Below, piece by piece: positions 2,204-18,965 of a stretch of DNA of 64,000 bases. Made by a program: the position numbers and the translations under genes. The DNA is from an uncultured Pseudomonadota bacterium (GTDB taxonomy: Bacteria > Desulfobacterota > Syntrophorhabdia > Syntrophorhabdales > CAYQXL01). The stretch spans positions 49,660 through 113,659 of the forward strand of contig CAZYVU010000004.1 of NCBI GenBank assembly GCA_964651435.1. The letters are read 5' to 3'. Position 1 is the first letter of the stretch. Every line of letters begins with the position of its first letter. Under the pieces are notes generated by a model, which was not told the DNA's origin, did no database searches, and saw nothing but the letters and a program-made list of their open reading frames with translations.

Positions 2204-3067
2204 CTATGGCTTGGGCCCCAGGTTTGAAGCCAACACATTCGTTTCCGGAGCGAATCCTGCCTGCGATGCTACCACAGAGCATTTGACCCTGAAGAGGAAA
2301 ACAATTTTTTTCCTTGTATCACTTAAGGTTTCGTAGTTGCCTTGCCCTTTTGCTATTATGAGGTCCGCGTCGCTAAAGCACCTCCTGAATTCAGGACTGC
2401 ATTCGCTCACTATGGTGCCCGGCGCGTCAGAGCCGTTATCAATTACTTTTGCGATGTCATGGAGGCCTGCCGCATAGGCGTCAGCCATCGTGGCATCGTT
2501 GATGACCGGTTTTCCCCTGACGGCAACCGTCACCCTTTCCGCGGGAAGCTCCTCAACAAGAAGGCGGTCAAAGAATATCTCACCCGCATTATCGGTGAGG
2601 TACAGAATGTTGGTAGCCCCTTGCATCGCCAGGCGAAGGCCTTCGATATCTCCGCGAAATGGCCCTGAAAGGGCCTCGGCAACGCCGCGAAGGACGGCAT
2701 CCTCCGTCATTCCGCTCTTGGCGCCGCAGTCAATCACGTTTCCCGTTATTCCAAGATGGACGGCCGTCCTAAAACGGTCCCGGCTTTCATAAACCTTCTT
2801 TCTCAGTTCGGGCAGCAATCCCCGGGCAAGGCGGTTGAACCGCTCTTTAACTTCTCTGTATGGATCATCGTTTCCCGTCAGCTCCCGTATCCCGCGGTGC
2901 ATCCACTGGCCTGCAACGGGTGGCGGTTGATCGAAATCAAGTCCTGCCAGATAACGAAGTACATCGCGAAACACCTCTACGCGGACCGACGGATGGGCCG
3001 GGACATAGCGTATCGCTTCCAGCGCTTGCCTCGCCAAACAGGGAATACAATCGATCGTGGATTTCAC
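2204..3067 (-). CDS. DUF89 (ARMT1-like damage-control phosphatase) family protein
   Basis: The N-terminal CIPC motif and the overall pattern (..DNAGEIFFD.., ..AKGQGNYE..) resemble DUF89. GTG start lies downstream of AAGGAAGAAG. Confidence 0.65.
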   Translation of the reverse strand: MKSTIDCIPCLARQALEAIRYVPAHPSVRVEVFRDVLRYLAGLDFDQPPPVAGQWMHRGIRELTGNDDPYREVKERFNRLARGLLPELRKKVYESRDRFRTAVHLGITGNVIDCGAKSGMTEDAVLRGVAEALSGPFRGDIEGLRLAMQGATNILYLTDNAGEIFFDRLLVEELPAERVTVAVRGKPVINDATMADAYAAGLHDIAKVIDNGSDAPGTIVSECSPEFRRCFSDADLIIAKGQGNYETLSDTRKKIVFLFRVKCSVVASQAGFAPETNVLASNLGPKP

Positions 3068-3089
3068 AGTTTCACTTCTTCCTTAAACG

Positions 3090-3105
3090 AGCAATTAGCA
3101 TGCCA
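3090..3105 (-). promoter_or_regulatory. sigma-54 (-24/-12) promoter facing the DUF89 gene
   Basis: The reverse complement reads TGGCAT-GCTAA-TTGCT, with exact GG-N10-GC spacing. The -12 C is at 3091 and the GTG start at 3067, which predicts a leader of about 12 nt. Confidence 0.6.
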
Positions 3106-3211
3106 AAGCTTCTTTGCAGAACGATCACGAGACAACCTCATAACATGCCTGGCTATTCTTTCCCGGAACAACAACGTCGAGGTCCATATGCCCTCGGCTC
3201 TTCCACACATT

Positions 3212-3226
3212 CTTGCACTATGCAAG
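3212..3226. promoter_or_regulatory. inverted repeat CTTGCA-cta-TGCAAG, candidate enhancer (UAS) for the 3090-3105 promoter
   Basis: Perfect 6-bp arms with a 3-bp spacer. It lies about 110-120 bp upstream (minus-strand sense) of the -24 element, just after the activator gene stop. Confidence 0.35.
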
Positions 3227-3227
3227 G

Positions 3228-4625
3228 CTATCTGCGAAGCCCCCGCCCGTCGCGTGCGGGGGCTTCGATTTTCAGGTCTTTGATCTTCCTGTAAAGGGTG
3301 CTTGTGTCGAGGCCCAACTCTCGCGCCGTCACTGCCCTGTTGCCGCCGCAGCGTCGCAAGGTCTCTGCTATAAGGGTTTTCTCCATAGCCTTCAGGTTCA
3401 TGGGGCCTGCTCCTCCGGCCGAAGACGATACAGGGGGGCGTAATTCTGGGGGGAGGTGGTGAAGCTCTATGATCTCCCCACGGCACAGGACGAAAGCCTG
3501 CTCGATAATGTTCTCCAACTCCCGTATATTGCCGGGAAAGTCGTATTCCATAAGTTGCGTCATGACCTCAAAGGAAATCCCCGCAATGGTCTTTCCCTGG
3601 AGCCGGTTATATTTTCCCATGATGTGGTCGACCAGCAACGGTATATCTTCACGCCGCGCTTTGAGACTCGGCAGAACAAGGCGGATAACGCGAATCCGGT
3701 AGTACAAATCTTCCCGGAACCTTCCCTCCTCGACAAGCCGCAAAAGATTCCTGTTTGTGGCGGCCACAACACGCACATCTACCCTAACGGGCTCCACGGA
3801 TCCGAGCGGTTCTACCGTGCGCTCCTGCAGCACACGAAGCAAACGCACCTGAAGAGCCGGAGATATATCACCTATCTCATCAAGAAACAGCGTCCCACCT
3901 TCCGCAAGGACAAAGCGGCCCACCTTGTCCCGCTTGGCGTCCGTAAATGCCCCGGCTTTGTAGCCGAAAAACTCACTTTCCAGAAGGGTGTCGGGCAGTG
4001 CGGCACAGTTTACTGCAACGAACCGTTTCTTTCTGCGCGGCGAGAGGTTATGTATAGCCCGGGCGAAAAGCTCCTTGCCCGTACCGCTGGGACCCTCGAT
4101 CAGCACCGTGCTGCTGCTCTCGGCGATAGGCGGGAGCATCTCAAACAGACGTATCATCGAGGGACTCCTTCCCACGATGTCTTCAAAGGTGTGGCGGCTC
4201 TCCAATTCCTTTCGCAGCTCTTCTACCTGACTCAGGTCCTGAAAGGTTTCAACCCCGCCAATCACGTTGCCATCGTCACCTTTTAGGATTGCCGTCGAAA
4301 TGCGAACAGGCACACGCAATCCCTTATTGTTAACGATAAAAGCGGTGGCATTCACGACGGGCTTTGCCGTTTCGAAGGTACGTCTCAAGGCACAGTTCTT
4401 TTCGCATATATTCGCATGGAACACCGCGGAACATGGACGCCCCATCGCCTCTTCCCGAGAAACACCGGTAATGCGCTCTGCCGCACGGTTGAAGGAAGTA
4501 ATATGCCAATCGAGATTTATTGTGAAAACACCCTCGTTAATCGAGTCGAGAATAACCTCCCGCTCCTCCGCTCCCGTTCCGTAGCGGCTAAGGGCTCTAC
4601 CATTTTTCATATCCTTATCGTTCAT
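3228..4625 (-). CDS. sigma-54-dependent transcriptional activator (PAS sensor, AAA+ domain, Fis-type HTH; no receiver domain)
   Basis: PAS-like N-terminus (ILDSINEGVFTINLDWHITSFNRAAERITG). Walker A GPSGTGKE, GAFTGA-type loop (GAFTDA), Walker B LFLDEIG. C-terminal HTH ..AARELGLDTSTLYRKIK. Confidence 0.9.
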   Translation of the reverse strand: MNDKDMKNGRALSRYGTGAEEREVILDSINEGVFTINLDWHITSFNRAAERITGVSREEAMGRPCSAVFHANICEKNCALRRTFETAKPVVNATAFIVNNKGLRVPVRISTAILKGDDGNVIGGVETFQDLSQVEELRKELESRHTFEDIVGRSPSMIRLFEMLPPIAESSSTVLIEGPSGTGKELFARAIHNLSPRRKKRFVAVNCAALPDTLLESEFFGYKAGAFTDAKRDKVGRFVLAEGGTLFLDEIGDISPALQVRLLRVLQERTVEPLGSVEPVRVDVRVVAATNRNLLRLVEEGRFREDLYYRIRVIRLVLPSLKARREDIPLLVDHIMGKYNRLQGKTIAGISFEVMTQLMEYDFPGNIRELENIIEQAFVLCRGEIIELHHLPPELRPPVSSSAGGAGPMNLKAMEKTLIAETLRRCGGNRAVTARELGLDTSTLYRKIKDLKIEAPARDGRGLRR

Positions 4626-4660
4626 ATTGCAATAGTATGGTACCTATAGTATTGCAATAT
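4624..4660. promoter_or_regulatory. 37-bp near-palindrome containing two ATTGCAAT boxes, candidate activator-binding site (UAS/operator)
   Basis: ATATTGCAATAGTAT-GGTACCT-ATAGTATTGCAATAT, with 15 of 18 symmetric pairs matching. It starts inside the activator start codon and is centred about 100 bp upstream of the 4740-4755 promoter. Confidence 0.45.
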
Positions 4661-4739
4661 GCGGCACAAATGTCAATGTAACCCTGCCCACCGCCGTGCA
4701 ACATATTGGTATCGCTGTTGTTTATATGTCTTTTCTTCA

Positions 4740-4755
4740 CGGCACAAAAGTTGCG
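4740..4755 (+). promoter_or_regulatory. sigma-54 (-24/-12) promoter facing the NifX-like/DUF5320 gene set
   Basis: CGGCAC-AAAAG-TTGCG, with invariant GG and GC at the correct spacing. ATG 4771 is 16 nt after the -12 C, so the leader would be very short. Confidence 0.5.
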
Positions 4756-4770
4756 TTGCATGTCGATATC

Positions 4771-5187
4771 ATGGTGATAGCAATAGCAAACTTCCAGGGT
4801 TCCGTATCGCCGGTCTTTGACGTGTCCGATAAGCTCTCTCTCGTAGAGGTCGTCGGCGGAAAGGAAGTGCAGCGAAAAGACGTGCTATTGATGGAAAGAG
4901 ACCCATTCCTGAGGGCTAAGGAAATGACCGCTATCAGCGTCGAGGTGCTGCTCTGCGGGGCCGTCTCGTACGCCATGGAGACGGCCCTGATTACCGCCGG
5001 TATCAGCGTTGTAGGATTTCTGTGCGGCGGTCTTGAGATGATACTTGGCGCTTTTCTGAAGGAGGGACTGACGGACAGCCGCTTTCTCATGCCCGGATGC
5101 GTCGGGGGCAGGCGACGACGTCGGTTTCGCTGTAGTCACGGAAGACAGGAAGCCCCTATGCGGGGCGGGCCAAACAAAAGGAGGTGA
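4771..5187 (+). CDS. NifB/NifX (dinitrogenase FeMo-cofactor-binding domain)-like protein with Arg-rich tail
   Basis: From the internal ATG the protein reads MVIAIANFQGSVSPVFD..LLCGAVSYAMETALITAGISVVGF..ILGAFLKEGL, the alternating pattern of NifX-like carriers. The tail is GGRRRRRFRC. Confidence 0.6.
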   Translation: MVIAIANFQGSVSPVFDVSDKLSLVEVVGGKEVQRKDVLLMERDPFLRAKEMTAISVEVLLCGAVSYAMETALITAGISVVGFLCGGLEMILGAFLKEGLTDSRFLMPGCVGGRRRRRFRCSHGRQEAPMRGGPNKRR

Positions 5188-5192
5188 GGAAC

Positions 5193-5597
5193 ATGCCAGG
5201 TGGAGATGGAACAGGGCCTCGTGGATTTGGACCCATGACCGGACGGGCGGCAGGATTCTGTACAGGTTTTCCCGTTTCCGGGTATGCAAATTTCGCTCAG
5301 GGAAGAGGGTTTCGTACCTGGGGCGGCCCTGGTGGAGCCGGCGGCCGTGGCTTCAGAAAATGGTTCCGCAGAACCGGACTGACAGGGCGGCAAAGAGCCG
5401 GAGGCTTTATGCCGGCCTGGGACAATCCCTTTACTTACGGTGCGCCCCAGCACACCCCTGCAGCGCCCGCTGTAACAAGGGAACAGGAGTTGGCTGCACT
5501 GAAGGCTCAGGCGGAATACCTGGAAGACGCCCTCGATGGCGTCCGCAGGCAGCTCAAGGACCTGGAGGCCCAGGGAATGGCGCCTCAGGCAGGTTGA
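5193..5597 (+). CDS. DUF5320 family protein
   Basis: MPGGDGTGPRGFGPMTGRAAGFCTG N-terminus, a Gly/Arg-rich middle, and a C-terminal coiled-coil-like REQELAALKAQAEYLEDALDGVRRQLKDLE. AGGAGG lies 7 nt upstream. Confidence 0.7.
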   Translation: MPGGDGTGPRGFGPMTGRAAGFCTGFPVSGYANFAQGRGFRTWGGPGGAGGRGFRKWFRRTGLTGRQRAGGFMPAWDNPFTYGAPQHTPAAPAVTREQELAALKAQAEYLEDALDGVRRQLKDLEAQGMAPQAG

Positions 5598-5606
5598 CGT
5601 CGAATA

Positions 5607-5640
5607 GGGGGTAACGGTTGCGCAGGTAACCGTTACCCCC
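5607..5640 (+). other. perfect 13-bp stem-loop between DUF5320 and the next gene (attenuator, terminator or RNA-stability element)
   Basis: GGGGGTAACGGTT-gcgcaggt-AACCGTTACCCCC. No U-tract follows. Confidence 0.4.
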
Positions 5641-5678
5641 GTGCCCCGGCTTCTGAGACATGATCGAGGAGGATTGTT

Positions 5679-6323
5679 ATGCGTATTGCCGTTACAGCGG
5701 AAGGACCATCTCTTGACGTCGCAATTGATCAGAGGTTTGGGCGATGCCCTTTCTTTCTCATCGTCAATACCGGGGACCTCACTTTTGAGGCTATCCCGAA
5801 CGGAAGCGCTTCTCAGCGGGGAGGTGCGGGTATCCAGGCCGCTCAAATGATCGTCGGCAAAGGGGTGACGCACGTCTTCACAGGTGCCTGCGGGCCCAAT
5901 GCTTACCAGGTCCTCGCGGCGGCCGGGGTCCAGGTTATAGTCGGCTGCACCGGCACGGTACAAGACGTCATCAGACAATGTCGGGAGGGAAGGTTTGTGG
6001 CAGCCGCAGAGCCCAATGTAAGGGACCACTACGGCGTCGGCCAACCCTTGTCGGGTCAGGCAGGCACCCCTATGGGAATCCCCGGCGGGTTTACGACAGG
6101 CATGGGGATGGGCAGAGGAATGGGCCGCGGCAAGGGCAGAGGAATGGGGGTGGTCCGCGGTATCGGTACAGACCCGAACGTTAGTGTCGGGCAAGCACCG
6201 GGAGCGCCGGTCCAGCCCAAGAATGCTCAGCAAGAGCTGGAGTTGCTAAAGAAGCAGATGCAGGACATTAAGAACCGCATCGACGAGCTCGAGCAAACTG
6301 CGCCCGCTAAGAATCGGGGTTGA
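5679..6323 (+). CDS. NifB/NifX-like domain fused to a DUF5320-like Gly/Arg-rich coiled-coil tail
   Basis: N-terminal half MRIAVTAEG..IDQRFGRCPFFLIV..GVTHVFTGACGPNAYQVLAAAGVQV matches NifX-like domains. C-terminal half is GMGMGRGMGRGKGRGMG..QQELELLKKQMQDIKNRIDELE. Confidence 0.7.
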   Translation: MRIAVTAEGPSLDVAIDQRFGRCPFFLIVNTGDLTFEAIPNGSASQRGGAGIQAAQMIVGKGVTHVFTGACGPNAYQVLAAAGVQVIVGCTGTVQDVIRQCREGRFVAAAEPNVRDHYGVGQPLSGQAGTPMGIPGGFTTGMGMGRGMGRGKGRGMGVVRGIGTDPNVSVGQAPGAPVQPKNAQQELELLKKQMQDIKNRIDELEQTAPAKNRG

Positions 6324-16047: not shown

Positions 16048-16169
16048 ACGTCCTCCAGAGGTCCTCCATCGGCTGTCGCGTGGCTTTATTCGAGAGGTAA
16101 ACGGCCGCAGAAGGATTCAGACTACTACGTAGGGGCCCCAGGCTGTGCAAGAAACAACTGCAGGGGACC

Positions 16170-16198
16170 TTGACATGTTATGAGCATATGCTTAAAAT
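16170..16198 (+). promoter_or_regulatory. sigma-70-type promoter of the DUF134 operon with an embedded palindromic operator candidate
   Basis: TTGACA-N17-TAAAAT. The spacer ends in the perfect palindrome AGCATATGCT (16183-16192). ATG 16205 is only 6 nt after the -10. Confidence 0.6.
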
Positions 16199-16204
16199 AT
16201 TCTC

Positions 16205-16501
16205 ATGTCAAGACCAAAGAAATGCAGATGTGTCGATTGTAGCCCTCACGTATTTTATTTTAAACCCAAGGGGATTCCCTTGGTCAATCTCTTTGAGATT
16301 TCCCTTGAGATAGACGAGCTTGAGGCATTGAGGCTGGCCGACTACGAGGGCCTGTACCACGAAGAGGCATCGAAGAGAATGAACATATCAAGGGCTACTT
16401 TTGGCCGCGTTTTGTGCAGCGCCCGCCATAAGGTCGTGGAGGCCATACTGGAGGGCAAGGCCTTGAAGATTGAAAACCAACAAGCTGGAGGTCACATATG
16501 A
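16205..16501 (+). CDS. DUF134 (UPF0251) family putative DNA-binding protein
   Basis: MSRPKKCRCV..FKPKGIPL N-terminus and a sigma-70 region-4-like HTH (EEASKRMNISRATFGRVL). Confidence 0.8.
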   Translation: MSRPKKCRCVDCSPHVFYFKPKGIPLVNLFEISLEIDELEALRLADYEGLYHEEASKRMNISRATFGRVLCSARHKVVEAILEGKALKIENQQAGGHI

Positions 16502-16872
16502 AGGTCTGTTTTGCAGTACAGAAGGATGAGGGGCTGGAAAGCACCGTCTACGGTCATTTCGGTTCAGCTCCGGCTTTTATCGTCGTTGATACGGAAGCGG
16601 AGACGGCGGCTACGGTAGCCAACAGGGACCGGAACCACGCACACGGGGCCTGCAACCCCATGGCCGCCATCGGCGGGCAGCGGGTCGATGCCGTGGTTGT
16701 CGGCGGCATCGGGGCCGGTGCGCTCATGAGGCTCAACGCAGAGGGCATCAAGGTCTTCCGCGCTGCAGGGCCGTCGGTCCGGGCAAACCTATCCTTGATC
16801 AAAGATAATATGCTCCCCGAAATGACGGCGCAGAATACCTGCGCTGGCCACCAGGGCGGGTGCGGCCACTAA
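16498..16872 (+). CDS. NifB/NifX-like (FeMo-cofactor-binding domain) protein
   Basis: MKVCFAV..VYGHFGSAPAFIVVD..VDAVVVGGIGAGALMRLNAEGIKVF. ATGA overlap with the DUF134 gene. Confidence 0.8.
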   Translation: MKVCFAVQKDEGLESTVYGHFGSAPAFIVVDTEAETAATVANRDRNHAHGACNPMAAIGGQRVDAVVVGGIGAGALMRLNAEGIKVFRAAGPSVRANLSLIKDNMLPEMTAQNTCAGHQGGCGH

Positions 16873-16890
16873 CGCGAGAAGAGGTGACAT

Positions 16891-17124
16891 ATGCCGATCT
16901 ACGAATACCGTTGCGCCGATTGCGGCCAGATAAGTGAATTCATCGTCATTGGCAATGAGGACGGCTTGGCCTGCAAGGCCTGCAGCAGCCCCAAACTGGA
17001 GAAGCTCATGTCGGCTCACAACACCGTAGGTGCGACCGGAAGCAACACGTTTGCGGGGCCCTCAGGCGGCTGCTGCGGAAACCCCGGATCCTGCGGCACC
17101 CCCGGTAGTTGCTGTTCCGGTTAA
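16891..17124 (+). CDS. FmdB-family zinc-ribbon protein with Cys/Gly-rich C-terminal tail
   Basis: MPIYEYRCADCG..CKACSS (CxxC-N-CxxC ribbon). The tail is GGCCGNPGSCGTPGSCCSG. Confidence 0.8.
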   Translation: MPIYEYRCADCGQISEFIVIGNEDGLACKACSSPKLEKLMSAHNTVGATGSNTFAGPSGGCCGNPGSCGTPGSCCSG

Positions 17125-17149: not shown

Positions 17150-18313
17150 CTATTTTTTGCTATAGAGCGGCGACATGCTCCGCAGGAATTCGACGCTTCT
17201 CTTCAGCACATCGACGGAACGGTCAACGTCCTCCAGGGTGTTTTCCATGCCGAAAGAGAAGATCAGCGTACCCTGGGCAAGGGCATAGTCGCGGCCGGTA
17301 GCGATGAGGACATGAGACGCCCTGAGCGAGCCGGCCGCGCAGGCCGAGCGGGTAGAAACGGCAACGCCCTCTTCGTCGAGCATCATCGTCATCGATTCGC
17401 CTTCCACATAGGCGACAGAAAAAGACACGAGGCCGGGCAGACATTTCTCCTGATGTCCGTTCAGATAAATTTCGTCTATGTCCGCCAACCGGCCGACAAG
17501 GGCCCTGCGTAGCTCCCAGACGTGGGCCGTGCGCTCCGGCATCTCCGCTATGGCCAGTTCGGCCGCCTTGCCCATGCCCACAATGCCGAGCATGTTGGGC
17601 GTACCCGCCCTCCTGCCGCCCTCCTGGGTGCCCCCGTCGATGAGGGGGAAGATAGCCGTTTTGGGCCTCACATAAAGCGCCCCTACGCCGGAAGGGCCAT
17701 AGAACTGGTTGGCCGCCATGCTCAGCAGATCGACGTTGAGCTCCTTTACATCCATAGGCACGTTCCCACAGGAAGCCACTGCGTCGGTGTGAAAAACGAC
17801 GTCCTTCTCTTTTGCAATCTTTCCGATCTCGGCAACGGGTTCCAGCGTTCCGATCTCGTTATTGGCATGCATGATGGAAATTAGGATCGTATCGCTCCGT
17901 ATCATCCTCTTTACTTCTTCCGGATCCACCATTCCATATTCGTCAACGCCCACCGAGGTGACCTCAAAGCCCATCCGCATGAGCACCCGAAGGGGCCGGG
18001 AAACGGACTGATGCTCGATGTTGGAGGTTATGATGTGCTTGCCCTTTTTCGCCTTGGCAAAAGCGACCCCCTTTATCGCCTGGTTCGTCGACTCTGTGCC
18101 CCCAGAGGTAAAGACAATTTCGCCGGGCCCGGCACCGATAAGCCGTGCGACCTGAGAGCGGGCACTCTCAAGCATCTCCGATGCCTGATCGCCGACCCGG
18201 TGCTGACCCATGGGGTTGCCGAAACCGTCCTTATCAATGTAGTCAACAATCGCCTTCTTAACCTCGGGGTGCAACGGAGTAGCCGAAACGTGGTCCAGGT
18301 AGGTTAATTTCAT
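17150..18313 (-). CDS. IscS/NifS-family cysteine desulfurase homologue lacking the PLP-binding lysine
   Basis: Class V aminotransferase fold throughout (ITSNIEHQSV, FHTDAV, active-site loop STRSACAAGS). The canonical S-x-HK-x-YGP motif reads SMAANQFYGPSG (DNA: GCC AAC CAG TTC TAT GGC). Confidence 0.85.
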   Translation of the reverse strand: MKLTYLDHVSATPLHPEVKKAIVDYIDKDGFGNPMGQHRVGDQASEMLESARSQVARLIGAGPGEIVFTSGGTESTNQAIKGVAFAKAKKGKHIITSNIEHQSVSRPLRVLMRMGFEVTSVGVDEYGMVDPEEVKRMIRSDTILISIMHANNEIGTLEPVAEIGKIAKEKDVVFHTDAVASCGNVPMDVKELNVDLLSMAANQFYGPSGVGALYVRPKTAIFPLIDGGTQEGGRRAGTPNMLGIVGMGKAAELAIAEMPERTAHVWELRRALVGRLADIDEIYLNGHQEKCLPGLVSFSVAYVEGESMTMMLDEEGVAVSTRSACAAGSLRASHVLIATGRDYALAQGTLIFSFGMENTLEDVDRSVDVLKRSVEFLRSMSPLYSKK

Positions 18314-18340
18314 GGTTCTATACCCCTTATCGCGAGCTTT

Positions 18341-18850
18341 TTACTTATGAACTGCAACGGGTTTCCCGCACTTCTTGCAGACAGGAGCCCTTTGCGGAAT
18401 CTCCGTGTCACAGTAGGGGCAATAGCAGCCTCCCTCACGCTCGCCGATAAACTCTACGGGCTCGCGCGTGCGGCCCTTGCCCTCCCTTCGCTCGTAAAAA
18501 TCCATGATCGCTTTGTGGAGGGCATCGGCGCCCAGGTTTGAACAGTGGAGCTTATTCTTCGGCAGGCCCCCCAGCGCCTCGGCCACGGCCTGGTTGGTGA
18601 TCTTCATGGCCTCCTCAAGCGTCTTGCCCTTGGCCATCTCCGTCACCATACTCGATACGGCTATCGCCGCGCCGCAGCCGAAGGTATTGAACTTGATGTC
18701 CTCTATGCGGTCACCCTTGACCTTGATGGTGATCGACATCATGTCGCCGCATATGGGGTTTCCCACCTCACCCACGCCGTCGGCATTCTCGATTTTCCCG
18801 ATATTTTTTGGATTCTTAAAGTGTTCGAGGGCAATTTCGGAATACGCCAT
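18341..18850 (-). CDS. IscU-type Fe-S scaffold with C-terminal zinc-ribbon extension
   Basis: From MAYSEIALEHFKNPKN: GNPICGDMM, FGCGAAIA and LHCSNL scaffold motifs. Extra tail CYCPYCDTEIPQRAPVCKKCG. Confidence 0.85.
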   Translation of the reverse strand: MAYSEIALEHFKNPKNIGKIENADGVGEVGNPICGDMMSITIKVKGDRIEDIKFNTFGCGAAIAVSSMVTEMAKGKTLEEAMKITNQAVAEALGGLPKNKLHCSNLGADALHKAIMDFYERREGKGRTREPVEFIGEREGGCYCPYCDTEIPQRAPVCKKCGKPVAVHK

Positions 18851-18965
18851 GGCCTCCTCCTTTGGTGAGCCTCTCCGATTAATATAACCCATCTCACCGA
18901 TTTTTCAAGCTAATTGGCGGAGGGCGGCACCCTTCGACCATTGGCCCACTCTTTTCCTCAGGGTG

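Follow-up and report, generated by a model that had tools for sequence, protein, structure and literature searches.

What kind of protein reads a perfect palindrome lodged in the spacer of a promoter, and what would its position there accomplish? The question is raised by a three-gene operon in a 64,000-nucleotide stretch of DNA (contig CAZYVU010000004.1, positions 49,660 to 113,659; hereafter the window) from an uncultured bacterium of the Syntrophorhabdales lineage. The operon encodes a small protein of the family DUF134/UPF0251, a NifX-like protein and a zinc ribbon, and an original prediction had proposed that the DUF134 protein regulates its own operon at the palindrome. We consider it probable that the locus is an autorepressor module with a leaderless promoter, in which a DUF134 dimer would occupy the dyad and the NifX-like protein would serve as the sensor. 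The elements on which the argument turns are given below in coordinates of the window, with SD standing for Shine-Dalgarno sequence.

16170..16175, plus strand: -35 hexamer TTGACA, read from the sequence; positions -35 to -30 if +1 is A16205
16178..16197, no strand assigned: 20-bp operator ('DUF134 box') TTATGAGCATATGCTTAAAA, from -27 to -8, filling the spacer and overlapping the -10
16183..16192, no strand assigned: perfect 10-bp core palindrome AGCATATGCT, core positions 91-100% conserved
16193..16198, plus strand: -10 hexamer TAAAAT, which doubles as the outer right half-site of the operator
16205..16207, plus strand: ATG start codon and predicted leaderless transcription start, 6 nt after the -10, no SD
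16205..16501, plus strand: DUF134/UPF0251 protein, 98 residues, predicted autorepressor (Pfam PF02001, E 9e-23)
16498..16872, plus strand: NifX-like (Nitro_FeMo-Co) protein, 124 residues (Pfam PF02579, E 4e-20), ATGA overlap with DUF134
16891..17124, plus strand: FmdB-type zinc ribbon, 77 residues, hexa-cysteine tail GGCCGNPGSCGTPGSCCSG (Pfam PF09723, Zn_ribbon_8, E 8e-13; TIGR02605)

TTGACA-N17-TAAAAT, the palindrome beside the -10 and the ATG 6 nt beyond it all lie where the original prediction had placed them. The spacer between the hexamers is 17 nt, and the promoter-like site scores 11/12, the top of a 10-kb scan. The 10-bp palindrome is the core of an imperfect 20-mer (16178-16197) that carries one mismatch against the consensus TTATGAGCATATGCTYATAA; the right end of the operator coincides with the -10 box, TATAA being common to operator and -10. 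An in-frame TAA at 16193-16195 precludes a start codon further upstream of ATG 16205. The operator is present as a single copy in the window, where 0.02 copies would be expected by chance. No second operator was found in the 64 kb, for instance at the sigma-54 locus described below, and looser searches with the core gave matches at chance level.

The site is shared far beyond this organism. A protein-based scan, limited to one genome per species, yielded 80 loci with DUF134 orthologs at 55-73% identity. The set covers at least five phyla, and includes delta proteobacterium and Thermodesulfobacteriota metagenome-assembled genomes (MAGs; Syntrophales, Syntrophorhabdales), Nitrospirota (including Thermodesulfovibrionales), Acidobacteriota (including Aminicenantes), and Ignavibacteriaceae, Melioribacteraceae and Omnitrophota MAGs. 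An operator, called when a sequence within 120 nt upstream of the DUF134 gene had no more than four mismatches from TTATGAGCATATGCTCATAA, is found in 74 of the 80. Across these 74 loci the operator positions are 84-100% identical, as against majority bases of 30-55% in the DNA just outside, and synonymous codon positions and flanking DNA vary freely next to it. The putative operator is nearly identical across at least five phyla, and the layout before the start codon is near-universal: cTTGACa, about 2 nt, TTATGAGCATATGCTTATAAT, 5-8 nt, ATG. Four of the six exceptions retain visibly degenerate copies at the same position. In the other two the operator stands at the head of the operon and DUF134 is a later gene, coming after a NifX-like gene (L042) or after two MinD/ferredoxin ATPase genes (L075). 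Loci L001-L008 are from the same strain (99.95% identity), have an identical region and are uninformative on site variation.

The promoter hexamers are kept along with the operator, the -35 matching at least five of six bases in 57 of the 74 loci and the -10 being TATAAT in 48; the TAAAAT of the window is a unique, weaker variant. A perfect dyad would require CATAA at the right edge, where the -10 has TATAA. Most leaderless loci have the better -10, TATAAT, with symmetry sacrificed, and many sites recovered by motif alone, which are mostly leadered, keep the perfect palindrome.

These latter sites come from a scan in which the exact 20-mer alone was compared with metagenome contigs; more than 120 stretches matched and 80 were examined. 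A DUF134 gene is immediately downstream in 65 of the 80 motif-first contigs and is cut by the contig end in four more, giving 69 of 80. Most other matches precede NifX-like (L096, L124), DUF5320 (L128, L150) or zinc-ribbon (L106) genes. Counted by family, the 80 contigs hold DUF134 in 67, NifX-like in 35, MinD/Fer4 ATPase in 18, zinc ribbon in 10, DUF5320 in eight and ChrA in four.

The DUF134 protein of the window matches its Pfam family at 81.1 bits (cutoff 27), with residues 2-90 on profile positions 5-91 of 98. Against the NCBIfam equivalog PRK04217 it scores 70.9 bits for a cutoff of 115, and so is related to that group without being a member. The family, whose members are predicted to bind DNA and occur mainly in anaerobes, comprises 2907 clusters at 50% identity (E<=1e-10). 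Pfam also reports weak Sigma70_r4 matches, and the AlphaFold2 (AF2) model (predicted local distance difference test score, pLDDT, 84) has an N-terminal beta-hairpin with Cys7, Cys9 and Cys12, a three-helix unit and a final strand. Foldseek superposes the three-helix unit on sigma-70 region 4 and on the DeoR DNA-binding domain, with a root-mean-square deviation of 0.6-1.4 A over about 50 residues. A sequence search for a solved DUF134 structure gave weak helix-turn-helix matches only, the best of them to the Bacillus subtilis DeoR helix-turn-helix on its palindromic operator (E 0.01).

Site and protein also change together. Four loci (L070, L073, L079, L088) have a variant operator, TTATTGGCATATGCCAATAA, in which both half-sites are altered in mirror fashion, and in all four the recognition helix carries R68N (SRQTFGN as against SRxTFGR). 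Arg68 is otherwise invariant, and R68N is seen in no standard-operator locus. A mirrored operator change accompanied by R68N is the pattern that would be expected of a dimer reading a dyad. Because of this covariation and the tight co-inheritance of gene and operator, the DUF134 protein appears by far the best candidate for the operator-binding protein. The site itself is dyad-symmetric, overlaps the core promoter of the regulator's own gene and is inherited with that gene. Autoregulation by DUF134 at the palindrome, as originally proposed, is thus supported by the return of DUF134 genes from a search with the motif alone, by the dyad symmetry, by the modelled sigma-70 region 4/DeoR-type helix-turn-helix and by the half-site change that tracks the recognition helix.

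The distance from promoter to start codon indicates where transcription may begin. In 60 of the 74 orthologous loci 5-8 nt separate the -10 from the start codon, the commonest distance being the 6 nt of the window. ATG is the start codon in 56 of these 60, and an SD-like sequence precedes none of them; of the 14 loci where the gap is longer, 7 have such a sequence. The motif-first set samples other DUF134 subfamilies, and there the gap exceeds 8 nt in 51 of 61 loci, mostly at 10-32 nt; 44 of these 51 leadered loci have an SD-like sequence, and the other 10 of the 61 are of the leaderless type. A split of this kind between leaderless and short-leader loci is expected if transcription starts just past the right edge of the operator, so that the palindrome would be promoter DNA and not leader RNA.

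The window locus has the sequence features of a leaderless gene (AUG, no SD, and a -10 ending 5-8 nt upstream). No SD precedes gene 1, and GGAGG and GAGGTG precede genes 2 and 3. The public gene call (P0043) begins DUF134 at an internal TTG (16280) and yields 73 residues. Because the 25 N-terminal residues that it omits are strongly conserved, we take ATG 16205 as the true start, and the truncated call probably stems from the lack of an SD there. These findings support a leaderless DUF134 mRNA with a predicted start at or next to A16205, and the original suggestion of a leaderless promoter gains from the conserved 5-8 nt gap without SD and from the SD-like sequences found at most loci with longer gaps.

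The two other genes of the operon appear to belong to the same machine. Pfam confirms the predicted order of DUF134, ATGA-coupled NifX-like protein and FmdB-type ribbon, the PF02579 match scoring 72.2 bits (cutoff 26.3) and the ribbon 48.6 bits against PF09723 (cutoff 34.4) and 48.5 against TIGR02605 (cutoff 31.3). The original prediction had called for a test of linkage of these families across genomes, and such linkage exists: a NifX-like protein is the product of gene 2 in 62 of 77 orthologous loci, and an FmdB-type ribbon gene on the same strand is found in 33-34 of 80. Of 63 loci, 33 have a 4-nt overlap between the NifX-like start and the DUF134 stop, and in 54 the two are no more than 20 nt apart.

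The same domains are also found fused. All eight of the scanned family representatives longer than 210 residues are DUF134::Nitro_FeMo-Co fusions (P0187, P0192, P0198, P0202, P0232, P0234, P0257 and P0267), and in L140 (minus strand) DUF134, zinc ribbon and NifX-like domains form one chain. In many operator-linked DUF134 proteins, of 150-170 residues, a CxxC...CPxC ribbon that ends in a Gly/Arg/Cys tail is fused at the C-terminus; compared with the free ribbon family by hhalign, the fused ribbon gave a probability of 52% and an E-value of 1.4e-4. Because the domains are fused elsewhere, we regard the three window genes as parts of one machine, and the NifX-like protein would then be the ligand-sensing partner of the regulator and not a carrier only.

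Both partners have conserved motifs. The NifX-like protein of the window carries HAHGACNP and a C-terminal CAGHQGGCGH, and its subfamily conserves HxHGACNP and CxGHxGGCxH (three Cys, four His), such that the subfamily probably has a ligand site of its own. Its nearest solved structures are MTH1175, TM1290, TM1816 and the orange protein (ORP) of Desulfovibrio gigas, and its relatives in the PDB are 1EO1, 1RDU, 1T3V/1O13, 2WFB and 2YX6 (E 4.5e-5 for 2WFB, the D. gigas ORP). Judging from the known ligands of the family, these motifs and the ORP-type regulon described below, the ligand would probably be a metal-sulfur cluster. The 77-residue ribbon protein has ten Cys, made up of the hexa-cysteine tail and four ribbon cysteines, and the family tail GGCCGxPxSCGxPGSCC is nearly invariant in the window and in the orthologs of L011-L077, which suggests that the tail binds a metal or a cluster.

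From these parts the following course of events is proposed. The sigma-70-type promoter (-35 at 16170-75, -10 at 16193-98) would start transcription at or next to A16205, giving a leaderless mRNA for DUF134, from which the NifX-like protein would be made by translational coupling and the zinc ribbon from its own SD. A DUF134 dimer would use its sigma region 4-like helix-turn-helix to bind the 20-bp dyad TTATGAGCATATGCTYATAA and, lying over -27 to -8 including the -10 hexamer, would exclude RNA polymerase; because a protein bound on the -10 would have this effect, the operon is predicted to be negatively autoregulated. Ligand sensing would fall to a separately encoded part of the regulator, the NifX-like protein, probably joined by the Cys-rich ribbon. 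Repression is the likelier direction of control, since the site covers the -10 and the spacer of a promoter close to consensus.

Several observations weigh against this model. Outside the window's own subclade the leaderless layout is not typical, only 10 of 61 motif-first loci having it, and the window operator is itself slightly degenerate (TAAAAT; one operator mismatch). The covariation of operator and R68N may come from a single event in related lineages. The Cys7/Cys9/Cys12 triad is complete in only 30 of 142 operator-linked DUF134 proteins, and was rejected as a universal sensor for that reason. The name that Pfam gives the NifX-like domain, Nitro_FeMo-Co, is no proof of the identity of its ligand. 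Finally, DUF134/UPF0251/COG1342 is essentially absent from the searchable literature, including binding, transcription-start and expression data, and a literature search with the operator sequence returned nothing relevant, its matches being NdeI primers.

A different sign of regulation could be imagined for the same protein on the same site. A DUF134 protein bound to the dyad might be an activator or a sigma-like recruitment factor, acting on a composite promoter that RNA polymerase cannot use alone; its fold is sigma region 4-like, and the -35 is poor at some targets, with four or fewer of six bases matching in 24 of 61 motif-first sites (L096, for example). We think this unlikely. Most autoregulated sites are near-consensus TTGACA-N17/18-TATAAT and should be strong unaided, the 17-bp spacer is optimal and requires no MerR-type distortion, and a dimer across -27 to -8 overlaps the -10, the classical position of a repressor.

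The palindrome might also belong to some other, unlinked factor, such as a global redox or metal regulator, with the DUF134 operon merely a conserved target. The 64-kb window has no other site that would show the identity of the binder, and the operator also stands before operons without DUF134 on the same contig (L096, L124, L128, L150). This explanation appears quite improbable given that the motif goes with DUF134 across phyla, and in 69 of the 80 contigs of the motif-first scan, that the recognition helix covaries with the operator, and that no other regulator gene is conserved in the orthologous neighbourhoods. To our knowledge, the motif, judged by eye, is also unlike Fur/PerR, IscR, Rex, ModE or FNR-type boxes.

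Any DNA palindrome can fold as an RNA hairpin, and this one might do so in a 5' leader whose promoter lies further upstream, with TTGACA/TATAAT fortuitous. We hold this to be most improbable. The bases of the palindrome are nearly invariant, where a structural element would keep pairing and vary bases; the two promoter hexamers are conserved together with it, as is the distance between them; the clean leaderless/short-leader split fits a start just after the -10; and Rfam has no match to an RNA element at the site at E<=1.

If DUF134 is the repressor at this operator, its own operon would not be its only target. The operator stands ahead of NifX-like, DUF5320 and MinD/Fer4 ATPase operons in L096, L124, L128, L150, L075 and L042. 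In L096 it is followed by two NifX-like genes and two MinD/ParA ATPase genes with ferredoxin inserts. L150 has two operators, one heading a tandem-NifX-like gene and two MinD/ferredoxin ATPase genes and the other preceding DUF5320. In other genomes the same operator is thus predicted also to control ORP-type genes (NifX-like, DUF5320, MinD/ferredoxin ATPases), and its occurrence before DUF5320 and MinD/ferredoxin-ATPase genes extends the cross-genome linkage noted above.

Two further observations were made among these loci. In about 12 of the 80 genome loci the DUF134, NifX-like and ribbon genes are followed, on their own strand, by a gene of the ChrA family (chromate/oxyanion transporter, PF02417; L012 at 2446-3645, L013, L015, L026, L028 and others), a hint that the module may be connected with the handling of oxyanions (Mo, W or S?). 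One 2.9-kb metagenome contig, L146, has the same operator-containing sequence at both ends (1-120 and 2740-2863). Two readings fit, a small circular element or a repeat in the assembly.

The remaining features of the window that bear on the module are these.

3228-4625, minus strand: OrpR-like sigma-54 activator, PAS domain with Cys65-x8-Cys74-x3-Cys78
4741-4756, plus strand: GGCAC-N5-TTGC element, preceding three orp-like genes
about 4773-5187, plus strand: degenerate NifX-like open reading frame, weak match to the NCBIfam MrpORP C-terminal domain (E 0.0018)
5193-5597, plus strand: DUF5320 gene
5679-6323, plus strand: NifX-like::DUF5320 fusion gene, the NifX-like part of which passes Pfam
16169..16177, no strand assigned: left arm, 9 bp, of the outer inverted repeat, CTTGACATG, judged incidental
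16204..16212, no strand assigned: right arm of the outer inverted repeat, CATGTCAAG, formed by the start codon and Ser-Arg codons, judged incidental
17150-18892, minus strand: nifS-like cysteine desulfurase and NifU-like scaffold with C-terminal zinc ribbon, convergent to the module

The outer repeat was part of the original prediction, which described a 7-bp inverted repeat, TGACATG and CATGTCA, over the -35 and the start codon. The repeat is present, and is in fact 9 bp long, but it is not conserved. A repeat of at least 7 bp occurs in the same zones in just 7 of 60 orthologous loci, and CTTGACATG/CATGTCAAG was accordingly rejected as a second operator. Codons 2 and 3 are free to vary among orthologs (TCA, TCG, GCC, GCG, CCG and others; AGA, CGA, AGG), and the repeat is best read as arising because the -35 box happens to face the codons ATG-TCA-AG. 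On the minus strand, at 16183-16211, TTGACA-N17-TATGCT forms a promoter-like mirror image directed at the divergent glcD-like gene. It is a product of the same 9-bp repeat, is not conserved elsewhere and was discarded as a real element.

The genes at 3228-6323, about 11 kb from the DUF134 module, look like an orp-like sigma-54 locus. The cysteine spacing of the PAS domain is identical to that of the Fe-S ligand cysteines C52/C61/C65 of the Desulfovibrio OrpR, and XdhC, radical SAM and MBL genes come after the NifX-like::DUF5320 gene. The original prediction had counted three NifX-like domains in the window; two pass Pfam (16498-16872 and 5679-6323), and the third, for which BLASTP gave no match, has the weak NCBIfam match only. 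It had also suggested that the two loci may form one functional system. The sigma-54 locus of the window has no DUF134 operator, and the DUF134 module has neither an ATPase gene nor a sigma-54 promoter; what stands of the suggestion is that the operator precedes the same families, in other genomes only.

A second -24/-12-like element, TGGCATGCTAATTGCT, occurs at 3090-3105 (minus strand) ahead of leftward genes for ARMT1/DUF89-like, NifU-like and MoaA proteins (2204-3067, 1716-2156 and 570-1556, all minus strand). The OrpR-like activator may also drive this leftward operon, which is related to Mo cofactor or Fe-S metabolism, although a single match of this kind in 64 kb could be expected by chance.

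The immediate flanks of the module are judged incidental. A functional link to the convergent nifS-nifU pair was rejected, NifS being adjacent in none of the 80 orthologous loci and NifU in six, as were the upstream glcD/CCG genes (divergent, glcD-like) as partners, which are not conserved at orthologous loci. Nor is the context that of a nitrogenase carrier: the module's NifX-like gene is flanked only by DUF134, the zinc ribbon, glcD-like genes and the convergent nifS/nifU, and no nif genes were found among the neighbours of the orthologous loci.

The proposed mechanism belongs to a familiar class, in which a helix-turn-helix protein controls its own gene by way of a dyad operator set within a leaderless promoter. 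Lambda cI, expressed from PRM, and many TetR- and Xre-type proteins are autoregulated repressors of this kind, made from a leaderless mRNA and acting at a dyad that covers the -10 and the spacer. As in the lambda cI-type repressors, the palindromic operator lies inside the core promoter, the regulator is first in its own operon and the DUF134 start codon is at the predicted transcription start. Unlike them, DUF134/UPF0251 is a family without a characterised member, its predicted operator hardly varies between phyla, and the putative sensor is a separate NifX-like protein, translationally coupled in the window or fused in other lineages.

Among solved proteins, B. subtilis DeoR (SorC family; PDB 7BHY, 8R7Y) is the closest to the DUF134 helix-turn-helix by sequence and among the closest by fold. 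DeoR likewise has a sigma region 4-type helix-turn-helix and binds a palindrome as a dimer, but it has a large sugar-phosphate sensor domain, whereas the short DUF134 protein has a Cys-bearing beta-hairpin and no effector domain. The NifX-like protein shares PF02579 with the FeMo-co carriers NifX, NafY and the NifB C-terminus. It differs from nitrogenase-assembly carriers in lacking a nif context, in having its own HxHGACNP and CxGHxGGCxH motifs, and in its linkage or fusion to a DNA-binding domain.

For the candidate targets, the closest comparison is the ORP system of Desulfovibrio vulgaris Hildenborough, in which the orp1 and orp2 operons are under sigma-54, IHF and the Fe-S PAS activator OrpR (PMC8359166, PMC3897727, PMC6345978, PMC4641369). 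Loci with the DUF134 operator share with it NifX-like/ORP proteins, MinD/Mrp-type ATPases with ferredoxin inserts and small DUF5320-type proteins, and the window has an OrpR-like activator with the Cys-x8-Cys-x3-Cys spacing beside orp-like genes. Unlike the ORP system, the DUF134 module uses a sigma-70-type promoter with the DUF134 operator and has no ATPase genes. We tentatively offer a wider proposal, in which DUF134 and the NifX-like protein (with the ribbon in some lineages) would be a one-component factor, split or fused, that senses metal-sulfur clusters through its NifX-like domain. This factor might be the ancestral, widespread regulator of ORP-type genes in anaerobes, with OrpR/sigma-54 a lineage-specific alternative in Desulfovibrio.

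No characterised DUF134/UPF0251 member, solved structure or dedicated paper was found in the searchable literature, where the function of DUF134, the near-invariance of its predicted operator from phylum to phylum, the proposed NifX-like sensor in its split and fused forms and the link to ORP genes all appear to be undescribed. The analysis gives the family its first predicted binding site, of 20 bp, and its first predicted target genes, together with a predicted mode of action and a candidate specificity residue, R68, for which nature supplies a swap partner. The leaderless start would account for the 73-residue truncation in public gene calls, and searches of metagenomes with the operator can reveal members of the regulon. 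The candidate regulon consists of the poorly understood ORP-type genes (NifX-like, DUF5320, MinD/ferredoxin ATPases), and a regulatory, ligand-sensing role is suggested for many NifX-like proteins in organisms that have no nitrogenase.

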